A DNA stretch of 64,000 nt from an uncultured delta proteobacterium (GCA_963850125.1 CAWKKB010000001.1:101546-165545); one strand, 5' to 3'; shown: positions 17,721 through 33,299, numbered from the stretch's first letter. A program made the numbers and translations. Notes: generated by a model not told the origin, from the sequence alone.

Positions 17721-17731
17721 GCCACAGAGAA

Positions 17732-17760
17732 GGGTTCGATCCAGACTGCGCCATCCGCCA
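17732..17760 (+). other. Degenerate tRNA-3'-like / att-like sequence
   Basis: GGGTTCGATCCAGACTGCGCCATCCGCCA: T-loop-like start and TCCGCCA end, about 257 bp from the recombinase stop. Confidence 0.45.
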
Positions 17761-18016
17761 CACAGTTTGTAGGATTCACATACAATTCGGAGAAGGCGGC
17801 AAATTGGCGCGTGGACGGGCCGATTCGCTCAATCCGTGGCACCGGAGAGACGGAGCAATGCTCATAAATTGCCAATTCAGCGCAATCCTCTCTGTTTCGA
17901 AAAGACTCGGTGCCACGGGCCGAGCCCTCCTAGCTGGCCCCTTGGACGCTTGATCTTTCGCCAGAATCGATGGGGCCTGGAGGTCTCAGAAGGGAGAAGG
18001 AAAAGGGGGGACGTTT

Positions 18017-19699
18017 CTACTCCGCCAGCAGTCGCTGCTGTGCATCCCATTCGATAGGAACGCCGGCCAGAACCTTGAGGCGCTCGGCTGAGAGGCAGAC
18101 GCCTTGCCGCCCGGCGCAGATAGATTCAACGATTGCTGGAGCGAGCAGGGCTAGCGGCACCATATGACGCACATAGCTGTCGCTCACACCTTCTCGAATG
18201 GCGATCTGACTGGTTGAAGTGGCAGTTCCTGCCGCGAGTTCGCCGAACCACTGGTGACCGCGGGCCAACGCTCGAAGCAAGGCAGGATCGGTCCGAGGTG
18301 TTGCGAGCGCTTCACCCGGGAGCACCAGACGCGTCTCGACGCCACGACGCCTCATCTGCAGAGGGACAAGACGGGTCATCCGAGGATCGGCTCCGCCAAC
18401 GGGGAATCGGTCAACCGGGAGCAGCGCTCGAAGGTTGAGTGTGATCTGCATGGCATCCCGCCTAAGCTCCACTCGGTCGATGAGAGGACCGGTGTCTTCC
18501 GTCGTCTCGATCTGCTCGAACGATTTGACCTTGGCATCTACTGTTTCGATGGCCCGCTTGAGTTCCGCAGCAGCGAAACCAAGAGCCTTGAGGGTCGAGG
18601 CCAGTGCGCCGCGATCCGACACGATCTGTCGTATGCCGGCAACTACGGCTCGTTCCATGCGTTCAGCGGGCAGACGCCACCCGCGGTCATCAGGCTTTGT
18701 GTTCCCCCTGACCAGTCTCTTCGAAACCAAATATCGGTAGCGCCGCTGTCCCTTCTTCGCCCAGCAGGAATAGAGCGGCTCGCCGCTCTCATCGAACAGT
18801 TTGCCCATGAGCAGGCCAGGGCCCTTTCTAACTGTCCGTCCCCGCGGGTGAGCGGCCTTCTGGCTCAGCATCTCCTGAACTCGCAGCCAGGTTGCTCGCT
18901 CAATAATGGCCTCGTGCTGACCCGGGTAGGCAACGGACTTGTGCCGGATCTCGCCCCGATAGATAGGGTTGGCGAGCAGGTGGTAGAGCGCGCCGCGTCC
19001 GAAGGAGAATCCGCCGTGCTGTATGCTTCCCCTTGATAACCACCGCTTAGAGACGATCGACCTGCGGTTCAGTTCCTCTCTGACTTTGCGCAGCGTCTTG
19101 AGCTCAAGATAAAGCCGGAATATCAGGCGCACCGTCTTGGCTTCGCCCTCATTTATTACCAGGCGACGATCGCGCAGATCGTAGCCTAGCGGCGGCGTGC
19201 CGCCCATCCACATTCCCTTCTGCTTGGAGGCCGCGATCTTGTCGCGGATGCGCTCGCCAGTAACCTCGCGTTCGAACTGCGCAAACGAGAGCAGCACGTT
19301 CAGGGTCAATCGGCCCATCGAGGTGGTGGTATTAAATTGCTGGGTGACTGCAACAAACGAAACTCCGTGGGCATCGAAGATCTCCACGATCTTGGCGAAG
19401 TCAGCCAGCGATCGGGTGAGGCGATATACCTTGTAGACGACGACCACGTCGATGCGCTTTTCCTTGATCTGTTCAAGCAAGGCTTTGAGCGCCGGTCGCT
19501 CCATCGTCCCGCCGGAGAAGCCGCCGTCGTCATACGCGGTCTTAATCAGGCGCCAGCCCTCGCCGGCTTGGCTCCTGACGAATGCTTCGCAAGCCTGGCG
19601 TTGCGCATGCAACGAGTTGAAGTTCTGGTCCAGACCTTCCTCTGAGGACTTGCGCGTGTAGATTGCGCAGCGCTTGGGAACGCCGTCACTTCGAGCCAT
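18017..19699 (-). CDS. Large serine recombinase (copy 1; DRLxR motif altered to YRLTR)
   Basis: CAIYTRKS catalytic Ser; QQFNTTTSMGRLTLNVLLSFAQFERE; PLGY recombinase domain. Confidence 0.95.
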   Translation of the reverse strand: MARSDGVPKRCAIYTRKSSEEGLDQNFNSLHAQRQACEAFVRSQAGEGWRLIKTAYDDGGFSGGTMERPALKALLEQIKEKRIDVVVVYKVYRLTRSLADFAKIVEIFDAHGVSFVAVTQQFNTTTSMGRLTLNVLLSFAQFEREVTGERIRDKIAASKQKGMWMGGTPPLGYDLRDRRLVINEGEAKTVRLIFRLYLELKTLRKVREELNRRSIVSKRWLSRGSIQHGGFSFGRGALYHLLANPIYRGEIRHKSVAYPGQHEAIIERATWLRVQEMLSQKAAHPRGRTVRKGPGLLMGKLFDESGEPLYSCWAKKGQRRYRYLVSKRLVRGNTKPDDRGWRLPAERMERAVVAGIRQIVSDRGALASTLKALGFAAAELKRAIETVDAKVKSFEQIETTEDTGPLIDRVELRRDAMQITLNLRALLPVDRFPVGGADPRMTRLVPLQMRRRGVETRLVLPGEALATPRTDPALLRALARGHQWFGELAAGTATSTSQIAIREGVSDSYVRHMVPLALLAPAIVESICAGRQGVCLSAERLKVLAGVPIEWDAQQRLLAE

Positions 19700-20171
19700 G
19701 ACTCGCCTCCTGCGGACGTCTTCCCCGCAGACCGAAGAAGTGCGGCCCGTTCCTGTGCGCGCCGGTGATCAACTGGGCTACTTCAGTCAGCGACCGGTAG
19801 CGCTTTCGTTTGTACAGCACTCCGCGATCCAGCACCCTGACCTCGTGATTGACGCCGTGCCAATCGCGCATCAATACGGTCCCGGCTGAAGCTGCCGAGG
19901 ATGGCTCAGGTTTTAGCGGGCGTCCTGAGAGCGCGTCGGTGGCCAGCCGAATGAGCAGTCTTCGGGTCGATGGCTTGAGTCCCCCGTAAACTTGCTCCTG
20001 AATTCGGTAGGCCACGGCACGGGTCAAAAGCTCGCGACTGATGCGATGTGGTGGATCGGAGTGGTAGAGCGCCTGCCACCGCTGTTTCAGCTCGGCGACC
20101 GAATACGACTTCAGCCTTGCGATCCGCTGTGGGATCGGCTCCGGCGACCTGAAAGATCTCTCGTCCTGCAT
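19686..20171 (-). CDS. DUF2924 domain protein (copy 1)
   Basis: AYRIQEQVYGGL, GTVLMRDWHG, YRSLTEVAQLITG..NGPHFFGL; overlaps the recombinase start. Confidence 0.9.
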   Translation of the reverse strand: MQDERSFRSPEPIPQRIARLKSYSVAELKQRWQALYHSDPPHRISRELLTRAVAYRIQEQVYGGLKPSTRRLLIRLATDALSGRPLKPEPSSAASAGTVLMRDWHGVNHEVRVLDRGVLYKRKRYRSLTEVAQLITGAHRNGPHFFGLRGRRPQEASHGSK

Positions 20172-20206
20172 GTGTGCCTCGCCTCCTCGCGCGGGCAGAC
20201 ACACAC

Positions 20207-20330
20207 ATCGCTCTGGTTGGCACCGGAAGCCAGTCGCGCTGTTCGCGCCTCATTCGCCTTCCCATCGCCTTTGAGGGTACGAGAAAATGTGCGCTTGGCG
20301 CTCGCTTCGTCGCCGCGTCAGAGCAAACAT
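20207..20330. promoter_or_regulatory. Divergent pair of CT(C/G)GCTTC-N10-CAGAGC boxes
   Basis: Minus strand CTGGCTTC-CGGTGCCAAC-CAGAGC (20210-20233); plus strand CTCGCTTC-GTCGCCGCGT-CAGAGC (20301-20324). Confidence 0.6.
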
Positions 20331-20367
20331 CCGATGCCAGCCGATATGGCTGAAGGAGATCGTGAAA

Positions 20368-20607
20368 ATGGAACACGCGAAATTGGTCGGCGCCAAGAAA
20401 ACTGGGGCGCTAAATACCAGGTCTGGGAGAACGCCAGTGAAGAAGGCGGAGGGCAAGCCCAAAGCAGAGAAGCTCATGTGCCGCTACTGCGGGAGTGACG
20501 ATCTCGCTCCGAGCTTCATCAAGCGACGCGATCGCCGCTGCCGGAAGTGTTTCGGCAAACGGTACGGCTCGGCGTCGCGGACCAAGACGACGAAGACCAA
20601 GAAGTAG
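20368..20607 (+). CDS. Small basic CxxC-x16-CxxC (putative zinc-ribbon) protein, copy 1
   Basis: AAGGAG RBS; KLMCRYCGSDDLAPSFIKRRDRRCRKCF core nearly identical in copy 2; terminator follows. Confidence 0.8.
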   Translation: MEHAKLVGAKKTGALNTRSGRTPVKKAEGKPKAEKLMCRYCGSDDLAPSFIKRRDRRCRKCFGKRYGSASRTKTTKTKK

Positions 20608-20624
20608 TGCCGGGAGCTACAGGA

Positions 20625-20661
20625 GGGATCGGGCGCTCAAACGCTCGGTCCCTTTCCTTTT
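20625..20661 (+). terminator. Intrinsic terminator
   Basis: GGGATCGGGCG-loop-CGCTCGGTCCC followed by TTTCCTTTT. Confidence 0.65.
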
Positions 20662-20784
20662 GCGCAATATTCTCGGTCCTCGCGTCGCCATGTCAGAGGC
20701 CGTTCTTGTTTTTCAATTCGCTTCTCTGGACAGGGGACAACTCAGTGTCACAGGGGCTAAAGACCAGCCGGCTCAAAACCCCTG

Positions 20785-21798
20785 CTACGGCTTGGTGGCG
20801 AGGATCAGCGGCGAAGGCAGCGCCGCCGACTTGATGATTTTGAGCGCACCGAAGCCCGCCTCTTTGAGCCACTCGCGATACTCACGCATCGTAAAGGTCG
20901 CGCCGGCCGGCGTGTGCAGCATCATGTTCAAATCGAACAGCATCGGTATTGCGGGGCCGGTTCGCGCGTCGTTCGGGATCAACTCCGCGATGAGGAGCAT
21001 GCCCTTGCTGCGCAGCGCCGCGGCACATCGCGCGATGAGCCGCTTGCCCCATTCGGCGCCCTCGCCATGGATGATGTGGCCGAGGACTACGAGGTCGAAT
21101 TGTTCCGCGCCGAAGTCCACTTCGCGGAAGTCGCCCTCGCGATAATCGAAGCGGTCTGCGACTCCATAGCGCTCTGTATATTGGCGAGCGACCGGAACGA
21201 CCTCCGGCAAATCCACCAGCGTCACGCGCGCGCCGGGGATATCCTGGGCAATTGAAATCGACCATGACGCGGCGCCGCCGCCGACATCGAGGACTTTCCT
21301 GATTCGCTTGCGCGTCTGGGGCGCCATCCCGCGCGCCGCGATTTTTCCGGCGGCGTAACTCTGCGGGAAGATGCTCTTCACCAGCACCGCGAAAAACTCT
21401 CCACGGGATGCTCCGCCCTGGACAGCAGGATGTCCGTCGCGAACGGCCTGCGCCAATTGCTGCCAGCTCGTCGAGAGCATTCTCACAACCTGGTCGATGC
21501 CTTCCATGAACAGGTCGCTCTTGCGGGAAAGGAACGTTCGCGCCGCTGGGCTTAACTCGTATTGCTCTCCGCGACGCGCCAGGTACTTCATCGCGACCAG
21601 AACATCGAGCAGCCGCCGGACCGTGGACGCGTTCGCGCCGGCGCGTGACGCCACCGCGTCGGCGGTTTGCTTGCCTTCATCGATCGCGGTGAAGACGTCA
21701 AGTTCGACCGCCGCCGCGAGCGCTGAGGTTCGCCACGCTGCCCACTGGTCGGCGTAAATCTGCATCGGCGACGGAATTGGGCGTGATTTTGCTGCCAT
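20785..21798 (-). CDS. SAM-dependent O-methyltransferase with dimerisation domain
   Basis: ALAAAVELDVF, VLDVGGG, GDF, HIIH motifs; RBS GGAGGAG. Confidence 0.9.
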   Translation of the reverse strand: MAAKSRPIPSPMQIYADQWAAWRTSALAAAVELDVFTAIDEGKQTADAVASRAGANASTVRRLLDVLVAMKYLARRGEQYELSPAARTFLSRKSDLFMEGIDQVVRMLSTSWQQLAQAVRDGHPAVQGGASRGEFFAVLVKSIFPQSYAAGKIAARGMAPQTRKRIRKVLDVGGGAASWSISIAQDIPGARVTLVDLPEVVPVARQYTERYGVADRFDYREGDFREVDFGAEQFDLVVLGHIIHGEGAEWGKRLIARCAAALRSKGMLLIAELIPNDARTGPAIPMLFDLNMMLHTPAGATFTMREYREWLKEAGFGALKIIKSAALPSPLILATKP

Positions 21799-22329
21799 GG
21801 CTCCTCCGGAGATATTTAAGTCTGTTTCAATTGAGCTGCTTCGACGATCGAAAGACGATACCAGACTCAAAGATAGAGTAAGAAACAGCAGTGGGGTGAG
21901 AGTTGGCCCGTGCCTTAATCAGTCATCCCAAACCAGATTGTGCAGCTGGTTCGGGAACACAGCGCGGAAACTCGCTGAAAGATCTCAGCATCGATGAGCT
22001 ACAGACTCTTGCCAGTTCGCGCAACTATACGATCGACGTCTTATCTGCTGTTCCAGTTCGGAGCTTTAGCTGAACTCCGCAGATGCGCGCGATGCGGACC
22101 GGAGAACAGAATGTGGAGGCGAATGCCGGGCGATAATGTTCGCTGCAGCTCAGCAAGATCGCCTCGAACAGCGGAGAACTTCAAAGGACACGTCGAAAAC
22201 ATCCTCGCATTACAACGTAACAAACCATCGAACCCGTTCGTTCAGTCCTAAATTACGCCTCCTTTGCAGAAGCCCGAAAGGGCGAAGGAAGTAAGACGGT
22301 CATGGCTTCCACGATGAACGAACGGGTGT

Positions 22330-22482
22330 TTGATCAGCACGCCGGCGACAGTCGAGCAGGCCGAAGTCAGTGAAGGTCTGGGGATCGCTCGCTACCGCGC
22401 GTTGGAAGAGTTCCCTAGCCTGGTATTCGGCGTCATGACGATAGCGTACATCGTCATGTCGTTTGCCAAGCTCGCACTCTGA
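22330..22482 (+). CDS. Small membrane protein (probably frameshifted from ATG 22302/22314)
   Basis: LISTPATVEQAEVSEGLGIARYRALEEFPSLVFGVMTIAYIVMSFAKLAL*; its 3' end is repeated at 29798. Confidence 0.4.
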   Translation: MISTPATVEQAEVSEGLGIARYRALEEFPSLVFGVMTIAYIVMSFAKLAL

Positions 22483-22556
22483 TGCGCGGAGACACTAACA
22501 GAGGTAGCCCCAGGCCACCCCGAGGCTCCCGACCAACTCTTTCAATACGAATTAGC
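22454..22556 (+). repeat. About 100-bp imperfect direct repeat, copy A (copy B 29798-29898)
   Basis: GTCGTTTGCCAAGCT.GC.CTCTGATGCG...CTAACA...CTCCC.ACCAACTCTTTCA..ACGAA.TAGC shared. Confidence 0.8.
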
Positions 22557-22601
22557 CGCGAACGGACGAGGCTAATTTTTAGAAGGTGGTCGGTGGGTTG
22601 G

Positions 22602-25600
22602 CTATGCTCCCAGCTGTTCCAGCAGGGCCTTGGCGTCTTTCAGGTCGGCGGTGTCGAAGCCCTCGGTGAACCAGTTGTAGATTTCCGCGAGCATTGCGCG
22701 CGCCTCCTCGCGATGACCTTGCTTCGACAGCAAGCGGGCCATGCTGGTGGTCGCGCGCAGCTCCCACGACTTAGCGTCACGTTTCCGGGAATGTTCGATC
22801 GCCGTCCGAAAACAGAGCTCGGCCTCAGGGGCGTAGGCCGCATCCTGCGCGAGTAATACCTCGCCTTTTATACGATGCAACTCCGGCTCAAATGCGGCTT
22901 CCCCGGTTTCGTTCTCCGCCGTCAATGCCGCTGCTATGAGTCTCACCGCTTCCATAGTCTGTCCCACCTGTCCACACGCTTCGGCCATTGGGCCAAGAGT
23001 CGGACCCGTATTTTTCGCACCTGTGGCCACGGAAGCTTCGGCCCCTACCTTCATGAGCGCGATTCCCTCCGTGACTTCGCCGGACTGCGCGAGCGCTTTG
23101 CCCAACTGGAAGGTGCAGAACGCCTTCCACAGGGCAAATCCGTGTTCGTTTGACAGAGCTAGTCCCTCCTCCGCGAACTTTTTTGCAATCCGCGCCTCTC
23201 GACGAAGGGCATACCCCGCAGCCGCATGATGCAACGCCATAGTAGTACTGCTGTGGTGCCCCCGCTCCTGGGCCAGCAATAGTGTGCGTTTGATCCTTTC
23301 GAGCGCCTGCTCGGGATAGCCGAGCATCCAAAGCGCCCAGGCCGCATAGCCCGAAACGCCGGTTGCAACATCCATCCCATAGATTACCGCGAGATGCCGT
23401 TGGCGCGGAGCATCAAAAAGCGACGCAGACTGCTCGAAATGCGAGTGGGCAAGCGCCAAGTCGCCCGTCCAGAACAGGATTATCCCCATCATTCCGTGAG
23501 CGAACATCCGTTTGGATGAATCATCTGAAGACTGCGCGAGGTCGAGAAGTTGACTCCCTATAGTGTGCGCCGTCTTGAACTGTCCACCAACCATGTAATG
23601 CAGAAACAATCCGCCTTGTGCCCAAAATGTCTGCTGGTCGTCACCCACCCGTTGGCTAAGCTCCATAGCACGCGCGTATGCAGCCTGGGTTTCTGGCGCG
23701 GCATCGCCTTTGGTTTCCATCAGCGAGGGCCCGAGCGCGAATTGCAACGCGAGCTCGTACCGATCGCGTTCAAGCGTTTCCGGCAGTTTCGTAAGCAGAT
23801 CCAATCCCGTGCTCAAGTTGGCGACGGCCTCAACGTAAGCTGCACGCTTGCCCGCCTGCTGGCCCGCCAGATTCAGGTATTCAACGGCCTTATAAGCGTT
23901 GCCGGCGCGTTGATAGTGATGGGCCAATTCGTTGAGGTGATCCTCAAGTCGCTCGGCATAGAGCGACTCCATTGCGCGGGCGGTTCGCTCATGGAGTGAT
24001 CTTTGCCGCTCACTGAGCATCGAGTTCAGCGCTACTTCCTGCGTAAGGGCGTGCTTGAAGCTGTATTCGATGTCATTGGCGCTGAGCTGCTCGAAGATGA
24101 ACTCTCGTTTCTCCAACTCGGTCAGCATCGGACCGAGAGTCTCGTCCGGCTGGGCAGTTACCTCCCGTGCGAGGCTGAGCGGGAACTGCTTGCCGATTAT
24201 CGCAAGCGTCTGCAGGAGCTGCTTCTCGTCCACGGGCAGCCGATCGATACGTGAGGCGAGTATTGCCTGCACGGTCGGCGGGATCCGCAGGTGGGCCGGA
24301 GACGCGGCGGTCTTGATCTCTCCGTCGCGGATCAGCGCGCCCTCTTCGAACAGGGCCTGCACCGTCTCTTCCATAAAGAACGGATTTCCGCCAGCGGTCT
24401 CCAAAATCTGGCGCCGCAATGGCTGCACCTCGCGCGTATCGCCTATCAACGCAGTGAGCATCTCGGCGGCGCTCTCCTGGCCCAGCGGTTCCAGGCGCAA
24501 TTGGGTGTACGACGATTGATTGCCCCATTCGTGCCGGTATTCGGGACGGTAATTAACAAGAAGCAGCACTCTCGCGGCACCGATCGAGTCAGCCAGGAGA
24601 TTGAGCAGAGCCTGCGTCTCGCCATCGATCCAGTGCAGGTCTTCGAAGATGACCATCAGCGGCTGATCGCGAGCTTCGCGCATCATGATGCGCTTAATCG
24701 CATCGAACGTCCTGCGCCGCCACGTCTGCCCATCGGTCTGCGCCAAGGGGTCATCACCTTCGACGATACCCAGGAGGCCGAAGAGGTACGGCAACGCGTC
24801 TTCCAGCGAGCGGTCGAGTGTATAGATTCTGCCGCTTACCTTCTCGCGCCGCCGGCGCGGATCGTCGCTGATCTCAATACCAAAGTAAGAACTCATCAGG
24901 TCGATAAGCGGCGCGTAGGGGTTGGCCTTTCCGTGCGAGACCGAGAATGCTTCCATCACGGTCCAGCCGCGCTGATAGCGAACCTTGAACTCGTAGAACA
25001 GGCGCGACTTGCCGACCCCCGGCTCGGCCACCGCCGCGACGATTTGTCCGTGACCTTGTTTCGCCTGCTCGGCCGCGCTGCTCGTCGCTTGCATCTCGCG
25101 ATCGCGACCCACGAATTTCGTGTAGCCGCGGATGGCGGCGCGCTGAAGCTTAGTGCGAAGTGGTCCGAGACCGGTCACTTCGTACACGTTGACCGTCTCT
25201 GTCACACCCTTGATTTTTGTCGGTCCGAGCGACTTCAGCCCAAAATATCCGTCGACCAGTTTCTGCATCGCTCCAGAAATCGCGATCGATCCGATCGGCG
25301 CCAGAGCCTGCAGACGCGACGCGAGGCTCGCTGAATGACCAATTGGCGTGTATTCAGTGTGCTCATCGTCGGTGCGTATGGTGCGGACCACCACTTCACC
25401 CGTGTTCGCCCCGATGCGAGCCTGGAGCGGGGGTTTGCCCTCGCTTCTCAACCTGGCGGAGTAACGCCTGATGTCCTCCTGCATGCGCAGCGCCGCATGC
25501 AACGCGCGCTGCGGATGGTCTTCGTGAGCAACGGGAGCGCCGAACAGCGCGAAGATTCCGTCGCCCGTCGACTGAACGACGTAGCCGCCGAAACGATGGG

Positions 25601-25976
25601 CTGCGTCGATCATGAGCTTGATTGCGGGATCGAAGATTGCGCCCGCCTCTTCCGGGTCGATGTCTTCCATTAGGTCCATCGAGCCTTTGATATCGGCTGA
25701 GAGGACCGTGACTGTTTTCCGTTCTCCGTCCAGTGAAGTTGGTTCGAGGTCGGAGTTGAGGGCGTCAATAACCGATACTTTGGTGCTCTCGCCGCGGTTC
25801 GAGGGCGGCCCGGCTCCGCGCCCAGTCAGCTGGGTGCCGCATTGAGCGCAGAATCTGCCCCCGGGCGCACTCTCGGCTCCGCACTTCTCGCACCGCCGAT
25901 TTACCAAAGCTCCGCATTGCGAGCAGAACTTCGAGCCCGCAGCGATCTCGGTTCGGCAATTTGAGCAAAGCATCAA
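22602..25976 (-). CDS. Double zinc ribbon + class III nucleotidyl cyclase + STAND NTPase + TPR protein
   Basis: Four N-terminal CxxC; ERKTVTVLSADIKGS, TGDGIFALFG; AEPGVGKS; FEDLHWID; conserved C-terminal cap. Confidence 0.92.
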   Translation of the reverse strand: MMLCSNCRTEIAAGSKFCSQCGALVNRRCEKCGAESAPGGRFCAQCGTQLTGRGAGPPSNRGESTKVSVIDALNSDLEPTSLDGERKTVTVLSADIKGSMDLMEDIDPEEAGAIFDPAIKLMIDAAHRFGGYVVQSTGDGIFALFGAPVAHEDHPQRALHAALRMQEDIRRYSARLRSEGKPPLQARIGANTGEVVVRTIRTDDEHTEYTPIGHSASLASRLQALAPIGSIAISGAMQKLVDGYFGLKSLGPTKIKGVTETVNVYEVTGLGPLRTKLQRAAIRGYTKFVGRDREMQATSSAAEQAKQGHGQIVAAVAEPGVGKSRLFYEFKVRYQRGWTVMEAFSVSHGKANPYAPLIDLMSSYFGIEISDDPRRRREKVSGRIYTLDRSLEDALPYLFGLLGIVEGDDPLAQTDGQTWRRRTFDAIKRIMMREARDQPLMVIFEDLHWIDGETQALLNLLADSIGAARVLLLVNYRPEYRHEWGNQSSYTQLRLEPLGQESAAEMLTALIGDTREVQPLRRQILETAGGNPFFMEETVQALFEEGALIRDGEIKTAASPAHLRIPPTVQAILASRIDRLPVDEKQLLQTLAIIGKQFPLSLAREVTAQPDETLGPMLTELEKREFIFEQLSANDIEYSFKHALTQEVALNSMLSERQRSLHERTARAMESLYAERLEDHLNELAHHYQRAGNAYKAVEYLNLAGQQAGKRAAYVEAVANLSTGLDLLTKLPETLERDRYELALQFALGPSLMETKGDAAPETQAAYARAMELSQRVGDDQQTFWAQGGLFLHYMVGGQFKTAHTIGSQLLDLAQSSDDSSKRMFAHGMMGIILFWTGDLALAHSHFEQSASLFDAPRQRHLAVIYGMDVATGVSGYAAWALWMLGYPEQALERIKRTLLLAQERGHHSSTTMALHHAAAGYALRREARIAKKFAEEGLALSNEHGFALWKAFCTFQLGKALAQSGEVTEGIALMKVGAEASVATGAKNTGPTLGPMAEACGQVGQTMEAVRLIAAALTAENETGEAAFEPELHRIKGEVLLAQDAAYAPEAELCFRTAIEHSRKRDAKSWELRATTSMARLLSKQGHREEARAMLAEIYNWFTEGFDTADLKDAKALLEQLGA

Positions 25977-26042
25977 CCCGTCTCAAAATCAGCTCGTACG
26001 CTCGTAAACCCCTGCGTTGAACTCGAGTCAGCGGAGCGACCC

Positions 26043-26660
26043 TCAATACGGATGACTCGGAAGCTCGAGAACTCCCTCAGCGTGCAGCAGCAGAGGTCCG
26101 GAGGGATTGGCGAAGTTGTCGCTCCATGAGAACCCTCCAGCCGCGCCGCTGAGATGTCCTGTCCCTCCAGTGATCACGCTCGAATCGTGGTTCACGGACG
26201 GCAGTCCGGCCGTGCAGACTGTTGCAGCGCAACAACTGAGTCCTTGAAAGTTGCTGGTCAGAGTGCTCCCGTCTTCGAATTTGTCCTTTTCGGTCCCTAG
26301 CTCAGGAAAACAAAACTCGGTCGGCGTGCCGTCGGAATCGTGCGCACCGTTTGGGCTGGCAGCTCCGATTAGGACTGTGGCATTCAGCGTGGCAGTGAAG
26401 GGCCCCAGGGCAGAGTTCCAGCCCGAAGACTCGGCTCCGAGATTGTAAAACTCACAGCCTGCACCCGTCACAGTGTCGCATCCCGCCGGACCGCCAAAGA
26501 CCAAACTGGTAATGGTTATCTGGCCCACTGCCTCGGTGTGAATCAGGTTCGGGGCGGTCGTTTGTCCGGCGCTAGCAAACGGCATTCGATAACTCCCGAT
26601 CGAAAAAAAGCTGATGGCGACGATCACGACTTGCTGTTTAGTAAATCTCAAGAACCTCAT
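26043..26660 (-). CDS. Hypothetical secreted Cys-containing beta-rich protein
   Basis: Signal-like N-terminus, RBS GGAGG, ITGGTGHLSGAAG motif, six Cys. Confidence 0.65.
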   Translation of the reverse strand: MRFLRFTKQQVVIVAISFFSIGSYRMPFASAGQTTAPNLIHTEAVGQITITSLVFGGPAGCDTVTGAGCEFYNLGAESSGWNSALGPFTATLNATVLIGAASPNGAHDSDGTPTEFCFPELGTEKDKFEDGSTLTSNFQGLSCCAATVCTAGLPSVNHDSSVITGGTGHLSGAAGGFSWSDNFANPSGPLLLHAEGVLELPSHPY

Positions 26661-26745
26661 ATGGTTGCCCCTCCACGGTGTTTTGGGTCCCTCCGAATAG
26701 CTAGTGCACCTTGGAGAACATTAGCCGCGACGGTGCGCGGCGTCA

Positions 26746-26784
26746 TAAAAGGACAATTTAATTCCGCTATAATTACGATTTAAT
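26746..26784. promoter_or_regulatory. TWWAAT boxes phased at 11 bp in a divergent intergenic region
   Basis: TAAAAG 26746, TTTAAT 26757, TATAAT 26768, TTTAAT 26779. Confidence 0.5.
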
Positions 26785-26802
26785 CCTTGCTAACCATGGT
26801 CT

Positions 26803-29700
26803 GTGACTGCGAAGTTGAGCGTGTTCGCGCCCTTCAGGCTCGATACGAGTAACGAGCAGTTGTGGCGCGGCTCAGAAGAAATTCGCCTTAGACGCAAAAC
26901 CTTTGCCGTCTTGCGTTACTTGGTCGAACATCCAGGCCAATTGGTAACCAAGGCGACATTGCTTGACGCCGTCTGGTCAGACGTCGCCGTCAGCGACTCG
27001 ATGCCTGCGATTTCGGTGCGCGAAGTACGCGAAGCACTGGGCGACGATGTCAGCGCGCCGCGCTTCATCGAGACGGTCCGAGGCAGGGGGTATCGCTTCA
27101 TCGCCAACGTCGCAAACGAAGTCGGTGACAACACGACTTCCGTGGGCGGGCGCGCAACCCATACCGAGCCAGGGCCCCGATTCAATTCCTTTGTGGGGCG
27201 AAAACACGAGTGGTCTCAGATGCTCGCCGCTTTGGCCGATGCAACTTCAGGGCAGGGCCGGCTTTGCCTGATTTCCGGGGAGCCGGGAATTGGCAAGACC
27301 CGGCTCTGCGCCGAACTGGCCCTCGAGGCTCAAGCTGGAGGCGCAGCCCTGGTAGAGGGCCACTGCGCCGAGCAAGAAGCGACGCCTTATCTGCCATTCA
27401 TCGAAATCCTTGAAAAGTACATCGATCGCGCCTCGGATCCGGACGCAGTCAGGAGGTTACTCGGGGATGAGGCCTCTGACCTCGCACGCCTGCTGCCCAA
27501 ATTGAATCGTCTTCTGCCTGATTTGCCGATCACACTCAATTTGCCCGCCGATCTGGCGCGCCGACAGCTCTTCAACAGCTTCAGCAACTTCATCGCACAC
27601 CGCGCTCGCGAACGGCCAATACTGTTGGTAATCGAGGATCTCCATTGGGCTGACGAATCCACCCTCGCTCTCACGCGCCACCTGTCCGAGCGAATATCTG
27701 ACGTCCCCGTATTAGTGATTGGCACGTATCGCGAGACCGAAGTGGATGTGGGTCCCGCGCTATCAAGAACCCTGGATGACCTGATCCGGGAAAGGCTCGC
27801 GCTTCAAATAAGACTCAAAGGTCTGCCATCCGGCGATGTAGCGCAGATGTTGGAAACGCTGAGCGGTAAGACCGTTCCTGCGATGGTGGTCGGCGAGTTC
27901 ATGGCTGAAACCGACGGAAACCCATTCTTTGTCGAGGAGTTGTTCCGGCATCTCGATGAAGAGGACCGGCTTTACGACTCGACCGGTCAATTTCGCGCGC
28001 GACTGAAGATCGATGAGCTGAATGTCCCGCCCAATGTGCGATTGGTTGTTGGTCGACGAGTTACACGGCTCGACGAGGATACCCGCAAAATTCTCGCTGT
28101 GGCCGCGGTGATCGGGCGTTCTTTCGCGTTCGAGCTTCTTGAGGCCGCGTCCCGGAAGGAGTCGCCAGCGCTACTGAATTGCCTGGATGAGGCGCTGGCG
28201 GTGGGACTGATTCGCTCCAGTGTCGAGCAGCCGCGCGCCCGGTTTGAGTTTTGCCACGAACTGACTCGACAGGCGATCCTGACGCCGCTCTCCGTTGCGA
28301 GACGCCATCGACTCCATCTCGACGTAGCCGAGGCGATCGAGGAAACGTATTCCGCCACGTTGGACGTCTATGCCAGCGAGCTGGCGTATCACTATGTTCG
28401 GACGGATAAAACCTGGAAGGCTGTAAAATACCTGAATCTAGCGGGCAAGCAGGCAAGCCGGCAGTCAGCGCATATCGAGGCGTTAGACAAGTTGAGTGCG
28501 GCTATCGCGCTGTTGAAGAATCTGCCCGAAAATCCTGAACGCGACCAGGAAGAGCTCTCTTTGCTGCTCTCGATAGGTACTTCAGTAATAGCTGTTAAAG
28601 GATTCTCAGACCTGGAAGTGGAGCGTACCTACGTTCGCGCGTCGGAACTCTGCCATCGTTGCAGTGACACAAGGCATCTCGCTCAGGCGCAACAGGGATT
28701 GGCAGCCCATTACTTGCTGAGATCACGGATCCGCCAATCACAAGAAATGGCTAAGAAAGTTCTCGATCTCGTTCGCCGTACGAACTCTCCATATCCCGCG
28801 CTATCGGTCGCCATTTTCTACTTCGCGATGCCTACATTCTGGCTTGGAGAGCTGGAGATCTCTCGCTCTGATCTTGAGGAAGCAGTCGCACTTATCGAAG
28901 AGCGACCTCCACAAAAACCGTACGACATTCACGACTCCCTCACCGGCTCATTGCAGTACTTGGCCTGGAACCTGTGGTACCTGGGGTATCCCGAAAAGGC
29001 TCGAATCGTTGCCCAACGCTCGCTCGCAGAAGCCCGAGAACGAAAGGACCTCTTCCTTCTGGCATGCGCGCTGAACCAGGTCGCCAGATTTTACGTCCTT
29101 CGTCGCGAAGCGAAGATTGCCCAAGAACTCGCATGCGAAGGACTGGCGCTGGGCAATCAGCAAGGCTTTCCAACTTGGTCAGCGGAAAGCATGCTGGTCC
29201 AAGGTTGGGCGATGGTCCACACCGGCCACGTAGCAAATGGTATCGTTCGCTTGCGAGAAGGCCTCGCCGCTCGCTGGGCAATCGGGGAAGCGGGCGCGCA
29301 ACCGCACTATATCGGGTGGCTGGCTGAAGCGTTGGGGAAAGTGGGCGGGCATGAAGAGGGCCTGAAGTTGCTGGACGAGGTACTGGAGCCCGAGCATGAA
29401 GTTCTCGTGTATGAGCCCGAACTATATTGGATCAAGGGCGGACTGTTGCTCTCGCAAGACAGCTCGAACACGTCGCAAGTTGAAGACGCCTTCTGCACCG
29501 CGATTGACATCGCGCGGAAGCACCGCTCGAGATCGATGGAACTGCGTGCAACAACCAGCCTCGCCGTTCTCTTCGCGAAAAATGGCCGCCGTGATGACGC
29601 GCGGGCGATGCTCACGGAAATCTACAACTGGTTCAGCGAAGGCTTTGAGACCGCCGATCTGCTGAATGCCAAGGCGCTCCTCGATTTACTGAACGAGTAG
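26803..29700 (+). CDS. OmpR-type winged-helix + STAND NTPase + TPR regulator
   Basis: PRFIETVRGRGYRF; GEPGIGKT; IEDLHWAD; GNPFFVEE; conserved C-terminal cap. Confidence 0.92.
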   Translation: MTAKLSVFAPFRLDTSNEQLWRGSEEIRLRRKTFAVLRYLVEHPGQLVTKATLLDAVWSDVAVSDSMPAISVREVREALGDDVSAPRFIETVRGRGYRFIANVANEVGDNTTSVGGRATHTEPGPRFNSFVGRKHEWSQMLAALADATSGQGRLCLISGEPGIGKTRLCAELALEAQAGGAALVEGHCAEQEATPYLPFIEILEKYIDRASDPDAVRRLLGDEASDLARLLPKLNRLLPDLPITLNLPADLARRQLFNSFSNFIAHRARERPILLVIEDLHWADESTLALTRHLSERISDVPVLVIGTYRETEVDVGPALSRTLDDLIRERLALQIRLKGLPSGDVAQMLETLSGKTVPAMVVGEFMAETDGNPFFVEELFRHLDEEDRLYDSTGQFRARLKIDELNVPPNVRLVVGRRVTRLDEDTRKILAVAAVIGRSFAFELLEAASRKESPALLNCLDEALAVGLIRSSVEQPRARFEFCHELTRQAILTPLSVARRHRLHLDVAEAIEETYSATLDVYASELAYHYVRTDKTWKAVKYLNLAGKQASRQSAHIEALDKLSAAIALLKNLPENPERDQEELSLLLSIGTSVIAVKGFSDLEVERTYVRASELCHRCSDTRHLAQAQQGLAAHYLLRSRIRQSQEMAKKVLDLVRRTNSPYPALSVAIFYFAMPTFWLGELEISRSDLEEAVALIEERPPQKPYDIHDSLTGSLQYLAWNLWYLGYPEKARIVAQRSLAEARERKDLFLLACALNQVARFYVLRREAKIAQELACEGLALGNQQGFPTWSAESMLVQGWAMVHTGHVANGIVRLREGLAARWAIGEAGAQPHYIGWLAEALGKVGGHEEGLKLLDEVLEPEHEVLVYEPELYWIKGGLLLSQDSSNTSQVEDAFCTAIDIARKHRSRSMELRATTSLAVLFAKNGRRDDARAMLTEIYNWFSEGFETADLLNAKALLDLLNE

Positions 29701-29797
29701 TTTGCGAAGAGCCGGAACAGGATACGGACGGAAAAATCGATCAGAACTATGACACCGTCATGATTCAGAAGCGGACCATGCCCAAGCGCGTGCACCA

Positions 29798-29898
29798 TCA
29801 AGTCGTTTGCCAAGCTGGCGCTCTGATGCGGGAAACGCTAACAAAACGAGCCGCAAGCCGTCCAGCGCTCCCAACCAACTCTTTCACCACGAAATAGC
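29798..29898 (+). repeat. About 100-bp imperfect direct repeat, copy B
   Basis: Aligns by eye to 22454-22556. Confidence 0.8.
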
Positions 29899-30112
29899 TG
29901 ACTAGCTGACTATCCTCCCACTAGGAGGGATTCGAACTGCAAATCTTCGGCTGATGTTATACATGCTAGGCATCAGCACAGCGAAGGAAGGGACCCGGAG
30001 AGCTTCGAAGAGCCGAACCGAGGACGAACATATTCTCTCCAACACTGATGCTTTTATTCAGGGAGAATAGTGCGCCAAAACTCGGGCCGAATTCCGCCCA
30101 TGAAAGAACTCG

Positions 30113-30149
30113 GGGCACTGGAGTTTCGAATCCCCCCCCCTCTCCGCCA
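30113..30149 (+). other. tRNA-Ser-like 3' half remnant (att-like)
   Basis: GGGCACTGGAGTTTCGAATCCCCCCCCCTCTCCGCCA; no 5' half found. Confidence 0.65.
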
Positions 30150-30381
30150 TACAGTCTGACATGTTTCCATACATTATGGAGAAGCGATAAAATCGGCGCA
30201 TGGGGCGCGATTCACGCGCGGTCGTGGACGCGGAGAATGCCAATGGTGGCGGCTGAGCGCAAATTCCGCGCAAGATTCTCTGTTCGCGATTTTCGCATGT
30301 CCATCTGCGAACCGGCCGCCATTTTGCGGGGAAGCGTCCTCGCGAAGAAGGCCTGACGCAGGCAACTACGCCCGCGTGTGT

Positions 30382-32070
30382 CTATCGGGGTTCCAGAGCT
30401 TGCTCCTGCGCAGTCCAGAGCGGGGGCAGTTCGATTCTTTGGGTAATCGCTATAGCCCTGAGGTCTGCGGGCTGCCGGCCTTGGGCGATTGCCTCAACGA
30501 TCCTTGGCGCCAGAAACGCCAGTCGCATCACGCGCCGCACGTGACGGCCTGTAACATGTTCTCGCCTGGCGATCTCGCCGATCGATTGCGCCCGGCCAGC
30601 CAGCAGATCGTTGGACCATCGATACGCACGAGCGGTCGCGTTGAGCAGTGGTAGATCAACGCGTGGCAGGGATGCAGCGTCACCATTAATGATCAGGCGC
30701 ATCTCAACGCCGCGCCGCTTTATCCGCATCGGAACGAATCGACTTAGCGCAAGTTCGGGCGGAGTCGCGGTATCACGTCCTTCATCGGATGGGATCGGCA
30801 ATTTAATGGAAACCTGGATGCCGCTCTCCTTGAGTCCAACGCGTTCGATCAGCCGGATGAGCGTCGATGAGGCTTCCGATTCGGACCGCAGGCTTTTAAT
30901 CCAGGCTTCGGCGACCTTGAATATCGAAGGCAATCGGCTCGCATCGATGTTGAGTTCTTCAATCGCTCCCGCGATTGCCACTCGATCACCGAGAATCTGC
31001 CGAGTCGCAGCGCGGACGGCTCGCTCAAGCTCCGGTGCAGCTACGCGCCACCCGCGCTGGTCATCCTGTAATGATCCCCTGACCAATCCGCGCGAGACGT
31101 AGTAGCGATAGTGGCGCGCGCCTTTTACCCCACCCTGCACATATAGGGGCTCGCCGTTCTCGTCGAACAGTTTACCCGCAAGCGGGCTGGAAGGCGCTTT
31201 GGTCGGGCGTTCGCGATGGGCGGCGGCTTGATCGCGCAAGCGCTGCTGGACCTTCTCCCACAGTTCCCGGCCCACTATCGACTGGTGTTGCCCTGGATAG
31301 CGTACCTTCTTGTGACGAATTTCGCCCAGGTAGATCGGGTTCGACAGCAGCTCGTAAAGAGCGCCGCGCGAAAATTGCCGGCCTCCCGATCGCACTCCGT
31401 TTTTCGACACCCGGATTTTGGAGTTGATCTCAAGGCGCTCCAAATCATTTCTCAGGAGCCGAACGGAACAGAGTTCGAGATATCGCTCATAGATGTGTTT
31501 CACCGTCGCGGCTTCGGCCCGATTGACTACCAGCCGGCGATCGCGGACGTCGTAGCCCAGTGGCGGCACTCCGCCCATCCACATGCCCTTGCGCTTGGAG
31601 GCGGTGATCTTGTCCCGGATCCGCTCGCCCGTTACCTCCCGCTCGAATTGTGCGAAGGACAGTAGGACGTTGAGTGTAAGTCGGCCCATTGAGGTAGTGG
31701 TGTTGAACTGCTGGGTGACTGCGACAAACGAAATGCCGTGCGCGTCGAACACCTCAACCATCTTGGCGAAGTCGGCGAGCGAGCGGGTCAGGCGATCGAC
31801 TTTATAGACGACCACAACGTCGACGAGTCTGCGCCTTATATCTTCCAACAGGCGTTGAAGGGCGGGACGCTCCATGGTCCCACCTGAAAGGCCTCCATCA
31901 TCATAAGCGGTCTTGACGAGCCGCCAGCCCTCGCCCGTTTGGCTCTTGATGAACGCCTCACACGCCTCGCGCTGCGCGTGCAGCGAGTTGAAGTCCTGCT
32001 CCAGTCCTTCCTCGGAAGATTTGCGGGTGTAGATCGCGCAGCGCCTTGTTCGCGGCTTAGCGCGTTCCAT
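30382..32070 (-). CDS. Large serine recombinase (copy 2, motifs intact)
   Basis: CAIYTRKS, VYKVDRLTRS, SFAQFERE, PLGY. Confidence 0.95.
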   Translation of the reverse strand: MERAKPRTRRCAIYTRKSSEEGLEQDFNSLHAQREACEAFIKSQTGEGWRLVKTAYDDGGLSGGTMERPALQRLLEDIRRRLVDVVVVYKVDRLTRSLADFAKMVEVFDAHGISFVAVTQQFNTTTSMGRLTLNVLLSFAQFEREVTGERIRDKITASKRKGMWMGGVPPLGYDVRDRRLVVNRAEAATVKHIYERYLELCSVRLLRNDLERLEINSKIRVSKNGVRSGGRQFSRGALYELLSNPIYLGEIRHKKVRYPGQHQSIVGRELWEKVQQRLRDQAAAHRERPTKAPSSPLAGKLFDENGEPLYVQGGVKGARHYRYYVSRGLVRGSLQDDQRGWRVAAPELERAVRAATRQILGDRVAIAGAIEELNIDASRLPSIFKVAEAWIKSLRSESEASSTLIRLIERVGLKESGIQVSIKLPIPSDEGRDTATPPELALSRFVPMRIKRRGVEMRLIINGDAASLPRVDLPLLNATARAYRWSNDLLAGRAQSIGEIARREHVTGRHVRRVMRLAFLAPRIVEAIAQGRQPADLRAIAITQRIELPPLWTAQEQALEPR

Positions 32071-32539
32071 CACGGCTCTCTTCTGGTGATCGCTTGAGTC
32101 CGAAGAATAAGGGACCCGACCATCGAGTCCCGGTGATCTCTCGCGCAACTTCCGAGAGCGAACGGTAACGCTTGCCCCCGAAAGAAAATCCCTTTTCGAG
32201 AACGCTTACCTGATGGCTGATGCCGCGCCATTCACGCACCAGCACCACGCCGGGCTGCACGATTCGAGACGGTGCCGCAGCGAAAGCCGACCCGTTAGCG
32301 CCGTCATGGGCGAACTCTGCCAGCAGGCGCTGCGTCGACGGCTTGAGGCCGCCGAAAGCTTCCTCCTGGAGCCGATATGCGATCGCGCGCGTCAGAAACG
32401 ACCGGCGGATATCGCGCGACGGCGCCTTGCCGAACATGGCTTTCCAGCCCGCGCGAAGGTCCTTGGTACTAGCCTTTGACAGGCCCGCAATCTCCGCAGG
32501 AAGCGCATCTCGGTTCAGAACCTGCGCCCGTCGCTTCAT
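32057..32539 (-). CDS. DUF2924 domain protein (copy 2)
   Basis: AYRLQEEAFGGL, LVREWRG, YRSLSEVAREITGTRWSGPLFFGL. Confidence 0.9.
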   Translation of the reverse strand: MKRRAQVLNRDALPAEIAGLSKASTKDLRAGWKAMFGKAPSRDIRRSFLTRAIAYRLQEEAFGGLKPSTQRLLAEFAHDGANGSAFAAAPSRIVQPGVVLVREWRGISHQVSVLEKGFSFGGKRYRSLSEVAREITGTRWSGPLFFGLKRSPEESRDGTR

Positions 32540-32637
32540 GATCCTTTCTCTCGGTATTTCGGGATTTTCAGCTCAGCATCCAACCTCATATCTGGTCCTC
32601 CTTAAGGTCGGCGATTCGCCTCCCCCAATGACACACA

Positions 32638-32840
32638 CATTGCTCGATTCGCGGCACGGAGCCAGTCGTGCGAGAGAGATTTTGGGCAATATCGCGCTTA
32701 CCCAGGTCTCGTCCTCTCAGCTGCATTCCCCATTCGCCTTCCAATCGCCCTGGTCGCGCAGACCCTCGATGTGCGCCGATAGCGGGGCTCCTTTCTGTGC
32801 GAGGAAACCGCTCGCTTCACGCGCCAACCAGAGCGAACAT
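32638..32840. promoter_or_regulatory. Divergent pair of CT(C/G)GCT(T/C)C-N10-(CA/TC)GAGC boxes
   Basis: Minus strand CTGGCTCC-GTGCCGCGAA-TCGAGC (32642-32665); plus strand CTCGCTTC-ACGCGCCAAC-CAGAGC (32811-32834). Confidence 0.6.
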
Positions 32841-32877
32841 CCCGACGAGCCTTTACGGCTCAAGGAGATTCAGAGCG

Positions 32878-33159
32878 ATGGAACAAGCGAAACTGGCGAA
32901 GGGAAGCGAGCATAAGCCGATCGGAAATTCCTCAACATCGGCCCCGAAAAAGGCCACTAGAAAAAGGGCTGAGTCAGCAGGGCCGCTCTGGAAGGAGATC
33001 GGGAGCAAGTCGAAATCAGACAAACTGCTTTGCCGCTATTGCGGGAGCGATGACCTGGCTCCGAGTTTCATCAAGCGGCGGGATCGCCGATGCCGGAAGT
33101 GTTTTACTAAGCGCTATGGATCAGCGGCACGCACGCGGAAGGCGAAGGTCAAGAAATAG
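32878..33159 (+). CDS. Small basic CxxC-x16-CxxC (putative zinc-ribbon) protein, copy 2
   Basis: AAGGAG RBS; KLLCRYCGSDDLAPSFIKRRDRRCRKCFTKRYGS. Confidence 0.8.
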   Translation: MEQAKLAKGSEHKPIGNSSTSAPKKATRKRAESAGPLWKEIGSKSKSDKLLCRYCGSDDLAPSFIKRRDRRCRKCFTKRYGSAARTRKAKVKK

Positions 33160-33180
33160 TTAGACTCCCGACTTGAGATG

Positions 33181-33214
33181 AGGGTCCGGGCTCGAAAGGG
33201 CTCGGCCCTTTTTT
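33181..33214 (+). terminator. Intrinsic terminator
   Basis: AGGGTCCGGGCTC-GAAA-GGGCTCGGCCC followed by T6. Confidence 0.7.
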
Positions 33215-33299
33215 GCGACTTGAGCTATTCAGAATAATATGGCAAACCCCCCTTCCGCCGATCGATCGCAGGATGACGAAACCAGATGGTATCGCCCGA

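Follow-up and report, generated by a model that had tools for sequence, protein, structure and literature searches.

What does a small protein of no named family do beside a large serine recombinase (LSR) and a DUF2924 protein, and what kind of element do the three genes serve? The question is raised by a window of 64,000 nucleotides (the whole stretch of DNA that was analyzed), which is C1:101546-165545 of a 5.46-Mb assembly from an uncultured delta proteobacterium (GCA_963850125.1; 15 contigs, 86.7% complete). The module in question consists of an LSR gene, an overlapping DUF2924 gene, and a gene for a small basic protein with a CxxC-x16-CxxC pattern, and two of the genome's five copies lie in the window. 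That the cassettes are the integration modules of tRNA-gene-targeting islands driven by the serine recombinase is well supported. For the cassette as a whole we prefer, tentatively and at somewhat less than an even chance, the reading that it is an integration-excision module of islands at tRNA 3' ends, in which the small protein would be a nucleic-acid-binding factor that sets the direction or timing of recombination.

Two copies of a three-gene module

The two copies in the window, designated C and D, comprise the following features, with positions counted from the first letter of the window.

18017 to 19699, minus strand: recombinase of copy C, 560 amino acids (Pfam Resolvase, 7.7e-38; Recombinase, 1.8e-15; phrog_95 integrase, 6.7e-98)
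19686 to 20204, minus strand: open reading frame (ORF) of DUF2924, copy C, with a likely ATG at 20171 (PF11149, 1.2e-41)
20172 to 20367: intergenic region of copy C, with three conserved blocks and the leader of the small gene
20368 to 20607, plus strand: small protein of copy C, 79 amino acids, a predicted C4 zinc finger with no Pfam, NCBIfam, or PHROGs family
About 20624 to 20660, plus strand: hairpin and T-rich run 3' of the small gene of copy C, seen by eye and missed by the pattern scan
30382 to 32070, minus strand: recombinase of copy D, 562 amino acids (ORF open to 32148, likely ATG at 32070; Resolvase, 1.2e-38; Recombinase, 5.6e-14)
32057 to 32539, minus strand: DUF2924 of copy D (PF11149, 4.4e-46)
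32540 to 32877: intergenic region and leader of copy D, with the stem GAGCC/GGCTC, compensatory relative to copy C
32878 to 33159, plus strand: small protein of copy D, 93 amino acids, a predicted basic C4 zinc finger
33186 to 33214, plus strand: terminator-like hairpin and T-run 3' of the small gene of copy D (pattern scan match at 33186 to 33205)

In copies C and D alike, the end of the DUF2924 gene and the start of the recombinase gene overlap by 14 nt, and the motif AAGGAGA stands 8 nt ahead of the small-gene ATG in both. An earlier, sequence-only reading of the window had described two diverged copies, each with overlapping DUF2924 and recombinase genes and a divergent Lys/Arg-rich protein of 79 to 93 amino acids preceded by a ribosome-binding site; the coordinates, the domains, the overlap, and the ribosome-binding sites were all confirmed. 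It had also given each small gene a terminator, and this held in part, in that a hairpin with a T-run was found after both genes, but the sigma-70 promoter and terminator scans of the window gave counts no higher than those in shuffled sequences.

Copies C and D are 56% identical in the recombinase, 45% in DUF2924, and 49% in the small protein, the last with an identical core, and DNA identity among the cassette copies is only 74 to 80%. The whole genome contains five small genes and six DUF2924 matches, five of them full length and one a fragment. Four complete cassettes lie within about 105 kb on contig C1, and a fifth, rearranged set lies on contig C10. The layout is more than chance, given these five small genes and six DUF2924 matches in one genome and the same linkage in other genomes, at 68 of 80 loci (see below).

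The rearranged module (C10:818376-828484, locus L010) is split. Its small gene lies with a 50-residue N-terminal fragment of DUF2924 and an intergenic insertion of about 560 bp, and about 6.5 kb of unrelated genes lie between these and a complete DUF2924-recombinase pair, which is close to the end of the contig. The cassette of about 2.9 kb was also considered as an element like an insertion sequence (IS). This was rejected on the grounds that DNA identity between copies is as low as stated and that the cassettes stand at the tRNA-proximal ends of larger islands with conserved right ends.

The cassettes as integration modules of islands at tRNA genes

The clearest island was found in another genome, at locus L012. 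There, a tRNA-Ser(GGA) gene occupies positions 3181 to 3272, and a 45-nt direct repeat (3235 to 3279 and 10036 to 10080; 89% identity) recurs 6801 bp away. Between the repeats lie the recombinase, DUF2924, the small gene, one STAND (signal transduction ATPase with numerous domains) gene, and nothing more. The locus thus has what marks a tRNA-gene-targeting island, namely, an intact tRNA gene at one end, a displaced 3' fragment at the other, and an integrase inside. Its small protein is 95% identical to that of copy D.

The genome under study shows the same association. In cassettes A and B, a 69-nt 3' half of tRNA-Ser(GCU), which extends from the anticodon loop through CCGCCA, abuts the recombinase stop on its downstream side; contig C4 carries the intact tRNA-Ser(GCU) gene (Rfam, 64 bits). 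Such fragments were located at C1:6766-6834, C1:30020-30088, C1:65353-65421, and C10:737685-737753; each has a conserved 155-nt "right end" before it and, after it, a conserved "left end" reaching toward the recombinase stop. At C1:6740-6834, ARAGORN called a tRNA-Ser(GCU) where Rfam called none; in the stretch so called, an island right end mimics the 5' half, and only the 3' half is true tRNA sequence. This is an attR-type junction and no gene.

Within the window, the fragments are more degenerate, and the islands are laid out as follows.

To about 17684: end of island B
17685 to 17753, plus strand: degenerate tRNA-Ser 3' fragment at the junction of islands B and C, with the T-arm and the ...CCGCCA end kept in the alignment
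17754 to 18016: left end of island C (nhmmer profile of four left ends, E = 6e-70), a sequence family whose members also stand after other tRNA fragments of the genome
17754 to about 30113: island C, about 12.4 kb
About 30114 to 30149, plus strand: degenerate tRNA-Ser 3' fragment at the junction of islands C and D (alignment; weak nhmmer match)
30150 to 30381: left end of island D (nhmmer, E = 7.7e-61)
30150 to about 36920: island D, about 6.8 kb
36921 to 36959, plus strand: tRNA 3' fragment bounding island D on the right (nhmmer, E = 4.5e-4; alignment)

Across other genomes, 60 recombinase 3' ends had a flank of at least 450 nt. An intact tRNA-Ser gene lay within 500 nt of 17 of these (7 CGA, 5 GGA, and 5 GCU), encoded on the opposite strand from the recombinase; 8 more had a fragment only, and 35 had neither by the strict pattern used. 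Modules with a convergent gene order followed tRNA-Ala(CGC) in four loci and tRNA-Val in one, and their left end is homologous to that of the tRNA-Ser type.

Contigs from public metagenomes were compared over positions 17200 to 37100. A contig from X5 joins position 30101 to 36926 with 12 other letters in between, at a depth of 3.1, and is weak evidence of a form without island D, cut at the predicted limits. Contigs from X5 and X6 also end at 36958 and 36954, respectively. Most other contig joints were rejected as traces of excision because they link paralogs, recombinase to recombinase or STAND to STAND, and they were read as relatives or chimeras; chimeric joints between STAND paralogs are numerous in these contigs. 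An empty tRNA-Ser(GGA) site was sought with the right flank of L012, and no clean attB was recovered, the first 160 nt or so of that flank being the multicopy left-end repeat.

This left end, about 160 nt long, has 11 matches in the genome and many in the genus, including places where no recombinase follows. Copies lie at C1:91636-91798, C2:413520-413675, C10:737766-737921, C10:758436-758598, and C10:822762-822913, and at 10081 to 10240 in L012. The one near 737.7 kb on C10 lacks a recombinase and is followed by a homologue of the first cargo gene of island B. Left ends without a recombinase are probably the stumps of decayed islands.

The cargo of islands C and D comprises the following.

20785 to 29700: cargo of island C, encoding an O-methyltransferase, a cyclase-AAA_16-TPR STAND protein, a 205-amino-acid protein without a family, and a Trans_reg_C-AAA_16 STAND protein (Pfam)
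33300 to 36701, minus strand: cargo of island D, encoding a STAND protein with zinc-ribbon, cyclase, AAA_16, and TPR domains (Pfam); the same gene stands at the same place in L012

STAND signaling proteins dominate this cargo (22602 to 25976, 26803 to 29700, and 33300 to 36701). Two of them are paralogous, with a double zinc ribbon, an adenylate/guanylate cyclase, AAA_16, and TPR, and the third combines Trans_reg_C with AAA_16. A Pfam scan of the cargo, restricted to the five large ORFs of the two islands, matched no recombinase family. The sequence-only reading had envisaged small integrative elements that ferry STAND and metabolic cargo, a proposal borne out by the tRNA-Ser fragments, the L012 island, and the X5 contig without island D.

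Recombinase and DUF2924 proteins

Both recombinases match the LSR N-terminal catalytic domain, PF00239, over the full profile (7.7e-38 and 1.2e-38), followed by the LSR Recombinase domain, PF07508 (1.8e-15 and 5.6e-14). Across 21 aligned recombinases, the catalytic domain hardly varies, and the last 120 residues or so match phrog_14161, annotated "recombinase." Between these regions, residues 297 to 357 or thereabouts align with positions 2 to 58 of the 58 in the zinc-ribbon profile PF13408, at E = 0.012 and 16.5 bits against a cutoff of 25.3. This segment contains invariant residues in the alignment, and no conserved cysteine was found in it among the 21 recombinases, so that the four-Cys zinc ribbon of LSRs is absent; the positions that we take to be those of the usual cysteines are D303, G306, S326, and W341. 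The zinc-ribbon domain may therefore be retained in cis without cysteines, its fold kept without zinc. The sequence-only reading had noted the missing four-Cys ribbon, which is right as to the cysteines, but a version of the domain without zinc appears to be present.

The DUF2924 proteins match PF11149 at 142 to 157 bits, where the gathering cutoff is 31.2. A structural model (mean predicted local distance difference test [pLDDT], 75) has a helical domain at residues 13 to 81 and a beta-plus-helix domain at 99 to 146. Foldseek returned nothing from the PDB at an E value of 0.001 or below for this model. The VIA wide search aligned the C domain (residues 94 to 156) with CcrM (6pbd_B; Z, 5.7; root mean square deviation [rmsd], 3.1; 59 aligned) and with MPND (7ydt_A; Z, 5.5; rmsd, 3.8; 60 aligned). 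The N domain aligned with Rho-N (1a62_A; Z, 5.8; rmsd, 2.5; 48 aligned) and with SAP domains at a Z of 4 to 5.5. The maximum for DUF2924 was a Z of 6.6, and structural Z values below 8 can reflect a common arrangement alone. Both the CcrM and the MPND chain presumably carry a RAMA domain. DUF2924 thus models as two DNA-binding-like domains, one perhaps like SAP/Rho-N and one perhaps like RAMA. A link between DUF2924 and RAMA is drawn in a passage of PMC11342252, and in the passages naming DUF2924 in that paper and in PMC10299305 and PMC11376236, its function is tested in none.

A small zinc-finger protein outside the named families

The small proteins are rich in lysine and arginine (25 of 79 residues in copy C, 28 of 93 in copy D), with an isoelectric point of about 10.5. 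The five paralogs in the genome have the invariant stretch CRYCGSDDLAPSF..RRDRRCRKCF.KRYGSA in common. A HMMER scan of 1.84 billion representatives returned 202 at E values of 0.001 or below, 139 of them at 1e-10 or below. Across the 202 representatives, at 50% identity, the core is near-invariant, and among those listed it reads CRYCGSDDLAPSF[IK]KRRD[RA]RCR[KA]CF.KRYGS with little change. A word-indexed search gave 1538 clusters of relatives at 90% identity; among the 120 clusters listed, no Pfam domain was recorded, and any source name was "hypothetical protein."

Selection acts on the protein. Over the 29 codons of the core, in 77 distinct nucleotide versions from this genome and the 80 loci, mean entropy at codon positions 1, 2, and 3 was 0.24, 0.24, and 1.03 bits; the copies were chosen by a protein-level pattern, and the values speak for selection on those copies. 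Serine switches between AGY and TCN and arginine between CGN and AGR among the versions. Third codon positions are about four times as variable as first and second positions, from which we conclude that the small gene is real and under strong selection at the protein level. An invariant core under strong selection was among the claims of the sequence-only reading, and the entropy values, with the identical core in copies C and D, substantiate it.

The small protein also has, as had been suspected from the sequence, no recognized family. No usable match was obtained in Pfam (E value of 10 or below, five proteins), NCBIfam (E value of 1 or below), PHROGs, or a PDB profile search, and none in plasmid and phage collections. 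PF01258 (TraR/DksA) and PF00253 (uS14) in particular gave no row for the five proteins even at E values up to 10. Among the 2.9 million viral contigs of IMG/VR, five short contigs, putatively viral, match the protein. It represents a tightly linked protein family outside all of the named families searched.

In a structural model (mean pLDDT, 65; 71 to 82 for residues 31 to 70), a CxxC knuckle is followed by a short helix (48 to 53) and a second CxxC that opens a helix (59 to 69); the Lys/Arg-rich tails are disordered, and no long N-terminal helix is predicted. Foldseek found nothing in the PDB at an E value of 0.001 or below for this model. The nearest folds, none significant, were zinc-type uS14/eS29 and the XPA/Rad14 fingers (E values of 0.8 to 6; uS14 rows, 0.8 to 2). 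Just two rows of the VIA wide search reached a Z of at least 2, namely, an archaeal 30S chain (Z, 2.1; rmsd, 8.3; 49 aligned) and TraR (5w1s_M; Z, 2.0; rmsd, 8.5; 59 aligned), and the atlas look-alike was Ribosomal_S14 at a score of 0.86. A prediction of the complex of recombinase, DUF2924, and small protein gave a score of 0.00, a mark of 0.32, and the outcome "no answer," which is neutral on binding. In the soil metatranscriptome X19, depth was 0.2 in the bin with most of small gene D, too thin to bear on expression.

The small proteins (20368 to 20385 and 32878 to 32895) and many recombinases (32070, and in loci L012 to L047) start alike, with ME[HQR]AK. The shared start could be chance, a translation-start context, or an N-terminal signal.

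Linkage of the small gene to the recombinase and DUF2924

Linkage was scored by tblastn of the recombinase, DUF2924, and small proteins of the window against a set of 80 loci, the best of 143 confirmed genome stretches. Nearly all come from metagenome-assembled genomes titled Binatus, Binataceae, or "delta proteobacterium"; L024, L026, and L060 are titled Terriglobales. The recombinase and/or DUF2924 adjoins the small gene in 68 of the 80 loci, in three gene orders, a result that answers the neighborhood check proposed with the sequence-only reading. The arrangements were as follows.

Divergent (recombinase and DUF2924 leftward, small gene rightward): 50 loci, 3 without one partner and 1 also with a convergent recombinase
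Convergent (small gene rightward, facing recombinase and DUF2924 leftward): 14 loci, DUF2924 seen in 7
Codirectional (small gene, DUF2924, and recombinase, all rightward): 4 loci
No partner in range: 12 loci, 2 with partner matches elsewhere in the locus and several cut by contig ends

Variants of the small-protein core track these orders. The variant D-R-R-C-R-K-C (RK) occurs in 42 of the 50 divergent loci, and D-A-R-C-R-A-C (AA) occurs in all 14 convergent and all 4 codirectional loci. The linkage therefore survived rearrangement, at least two rearrangements in all. Among the cassettes of this genome, DNA homology stops about 60 bp past the small-gene stop and, on the other side, 120 to 300 bp past the recombinase stop; the end so close after the small gene places that gene in the conserved core and not among the cargo.

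In a sample of 151 genomes from the window's GTDB family, related genomes being nonindependent and many incomplete, the small gene was present in 65, often in several copies, and PF11149 in 62. Both were found in 49 genomes, the small gene only in 16, DUF2924 only in 13, and neither in 73; the tally takes in genomes flagged as unpublished (G243 with both, G271 with the small gene only, and G341 with DUF2924 only). The small gene was found in none of 200 other genomes across the phylum, just one of which was from the same family. At loci L092 to L097, from genomes G230, G319, and G278 of the same family, DUF2924-recombinase pairs occur, several to a genome, and the small gene is missing. The place expected for the small gene is taken in L092 by an IS-like transposase ORF, and in L094 a tRNA-Ser(GCU) still follows the recombinase.

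A structured leader ahead of the small gene

The stretch between DUF2924 and the small gene contains three blocks that are conserved in each of the genome's five copies. Across the 80 loci, block B2 was found upstream of the small gene in 48, block B3b in 43, and a hairpin in 33, and convergent and codirectional loci have their own version of the blocks, likewise upstream of the small gene. The sequence-only reading had taken such elements for shared promoter boxes. That interpretation is not supported: whatever the gene order, the blocks stay with the small gene, and they are accordingly its own leader and no shared operator. In copy C, the leader consists of the following.

20319 to 20326: CAGAGCAA
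20338 to 20352: hairpin
20353 to 20359: Shine-Dalgarno (SD) sequence

A leader of the form CAGAGC[AG]A-hairpin-SD was found in 71 copies, in every gene order, with stems that vary and yet stay paired. CAGCC/GGCTG in copy C and GAGCC/GGCTC in copy D form one such compensatory stem pair. In 23 leaders of the long type, 2 of 10 predicted pairs are compensatory (CG8/AU6/GC6 and GC13/CG3/AU1). Structured leaders of this kind, of short-hairpin and long-hairpin types, lie at 20319 to 20359, at about 32830 to 32870, and in loci L013 to L090. Rfam at its gathering scores had no match in the window. The leader could, on these features, be a site of translational or autogenous control.

How the module might work

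According to the reading that we prefer, islands B (its end), C, and D would be stacked in tandem at decayed tRNA-Ser fragments, and the serine recombinase would carry out strand exchange. DUF2924, made from the same, translationally coupled message, would be a DNA-binding-like accessory protein. The small protein, a predicted C4 zinc finger between Lys/Arg-rich tails, would be made from its own leader and terminator, separately from the always coexpressed DUF2924-recombinase pair. It would bind nucleic acid at or near the module and set the direction or timing of recombination, as a cofactor of the directionality type or as an excision switch. Its own transcription unit beside the coupled pair, the linkage kept through rearrangement, and its charge and zinc finger argue, tentatively, for a control switch resembling a recombination directionality factor (RDF). 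DNA binding, contact with the recombinase or DUF2924, and an effect on direction are all putative.

Several observations weigh against this reading. Known directionality factors usually codiverge with their integrase, and here the core is nearly invariant beside recombinases that are only about 55% identical and DUF2924 proteins that are about 45% identical. Such a core better fits a conserved target, for example, the catalytic domain of the recombinase, tRNA-gene DNA, or a host machine. When 8-mers present in at least three copies of each were compared among the left end, right end, intergenic region, and sequence 3' of the small gene, no two of these had one in common as a candidate shared binding site. 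Each partner also occurs alone: DUF2924-recombinase modules lack the small gene in the same family (13 of 151 genomes; L092 to L097) and in phages, and the small gene lacks a recombinase or DUF2924 in range in 12 of 80 loci and stands without DUF2924 in 16 of 151 genomes. The limits of the islands in the window rest on degenerate fragments, and all structural matches are weak (DUF2924, Z of 6.6 at most; no Foldseek match at an E value of 0.001 or below for either model).

A possibility that we take seriously, at well under an even chance, is that the small protein regulates expression and is no recombination cofactor. It would bind its own leader, as RNA or DNA, and/or the start of the neighboring operon, and would thereby control how much of the module is made, as an autoregulated repressor or activator in the manner of a prophage switch. 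The leader in 71 copies and every gene order, its stems paired despite variation, and the three blocks that all five copies in the genome keep between the divergent genes are consistent with this, and an invariant core together with an invariant leader motif has the look of a fixed protein-nucleic acid pair; the nearest fold look-alikes, though not significant, are the RNA-binding zinc-type uS14/eS29. However, covariation extends to just 2 of 10 stem pairs, and in 18 of the 68 linked loci the small gene lies away from the DUF2924 promoter region, and the blocks go with the small gene rather than with the operon. In mobile elements, moreover, switch proteins usually diversify in specificity, where the core here is nearly invariant. 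That near-invariance across 202 representatives would suit a host machine as the target, either RNA polymerase, as for TraR, or the ribosome or tRNA, as for a uS14-like protein; the small protein would then aid the island after transfer or stress, and it would be linked to the module just through their both making up the conserved end of the island. The two VIA rows at a Z of at least 2 (the archaeal 30S chain and RNA-polymerase-bound TraR), the Ribosomal_S14 look-alike, and the intact small genes without a nearby recombinase (12 of 80 loci) or found alone (16 of 151 genomes) point the same way. We nevertheless think this unlikely: the structural scores are at noise level, there is no zf-dskA_traR or Ribosomal_S14 match at E values up to 10, and the long N-terminal helix of TraR is not predicted. 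Confinement to a single bacterial family in the samples searched, beside the module in 68 of 80 loci, would also be difficult to account for if the gene had no tie to the module.

Two further alternatives would give the small protein a part in recombination itself. It might, as the sequence-only reading suggested in proposing a trans-acting zinc module, replace the lost zinc ribbon of the recombinase, the two forming a split DNA-binding domain. The recombinases do lack cysteines at the usual positions, with PF13408 below its curated cutoff, and the small protein has exactly four. But a collinear PF13408-like segment with invariant residues lies in cis, so nothing is missing, the model of the small protein is a knuckle and helix and not the beta-ribbon of LSRs, and DUF2924-recombinase pairs of the same type occur without the small protein; we regard this alternative as very improbable. 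The other is a three-protein serine integrase, in which a recombinase without zinc would hand recognition of the attachment site or target to DUF2924 and the zinc finger, the latter reading the T-arm and acceptor end of the tRNA gene or the tRNA itself. This would explain the near-invariant core, the use of tRNA-Ser isoacceptors together with tRNA-Ala and tRNA-Val, and the targeting of tRNA genes by a serine integrase, and we consider it improbable on the features at hand.

Significance

Large serine integrases are valued for genome engineering, short sites sufficing for their action, and the identification of LSR directionality cofactors is a present bottleneck, according to passages of PMC12286644. 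The lineage described here is set apart by its DNA-binding domain without zinc, its coupled DUF2924, its highly conserved zinc-finger protein, and its tRNA-gene targets. The small-protein family is new and the choice of target unusual; an LSR integration module with an accessory factor is known. Three small genes and sites of about 50 bp make a test system that could assign a function to DUF2924, including that of phage WO, and to more than 1500 clusters of small proteins. The islands also reveal an uncultured soil lineage that stacks STAND signaling genes in tandem.

Comparison with known systems

The TraR/DksA proteins and zinc-type uS14 resemble the small protein in size, in having four cysteines in two CxxC pairs, and in the second pair opening a helix. 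The cysteine pairs are 17 residues apart in TraR/DksA and 12 in uS14; those of the small protein are 16 apart, and it differs further in its Lys-rich tails and in having no N-terminal coiled coil.

The systems of an LSR and its RDF, such as phiC31 Int/gp3, Bxb1 gp35/gp47, SPbeta SprA/SprB, and TP901-1 Int/Orf7, are like the module in the serine catalytic and recombinase domains, in the integrase at the end of the element, and in a small basic protein beside it, separately transcribed. Several LSR directionality factors are small proteins of 58 to 75 amino acids encoded near the integrase. The module of the window differs from these systems in its cysteine-free zinc-ribbon domain, its extra C-terminal phrog_14161 domain, its translationally coupled DUF2924 partner, and its tRNA-gene target. 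The small protein, a candidate RDF, differs in being a predicted C4 zinc finger outside the known RDF families.

In Wolbachia phage WO and Acidithiobacillus phage AcaML1, DUF2924 likewise lies directly upstream of a resolvase-family integrase that it abuts or overlaps, and passages of PMC10299305 and PMC11376236 describe DUF2924 beside the serine recombinase in these phages. The phage DUF2924 proteins are only 30 to 37% identical to those of the window, and the 63-amino-acid gene upstream of DUF2924 in AcaML1 encodes no cysteine, unlike the small gene of the window.

Islands of the Islander type have in common with those described here the tRNA gene, the displaced 3' fragment as a direct repeat, the tRNA-proximal integrase, and the tandem arrays. 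The authors of the 2014 Islander study stated, in a passage of PMC4383910, that no serine integrase was known at tRNA genes. A literature search for such integrases, over text passages and listings outside supplements and subscription journals, turned up no case, and later reports may exist. In the islands of the window, by contrast with the Islander type, a serine recombinase is the sole recombinase seen.

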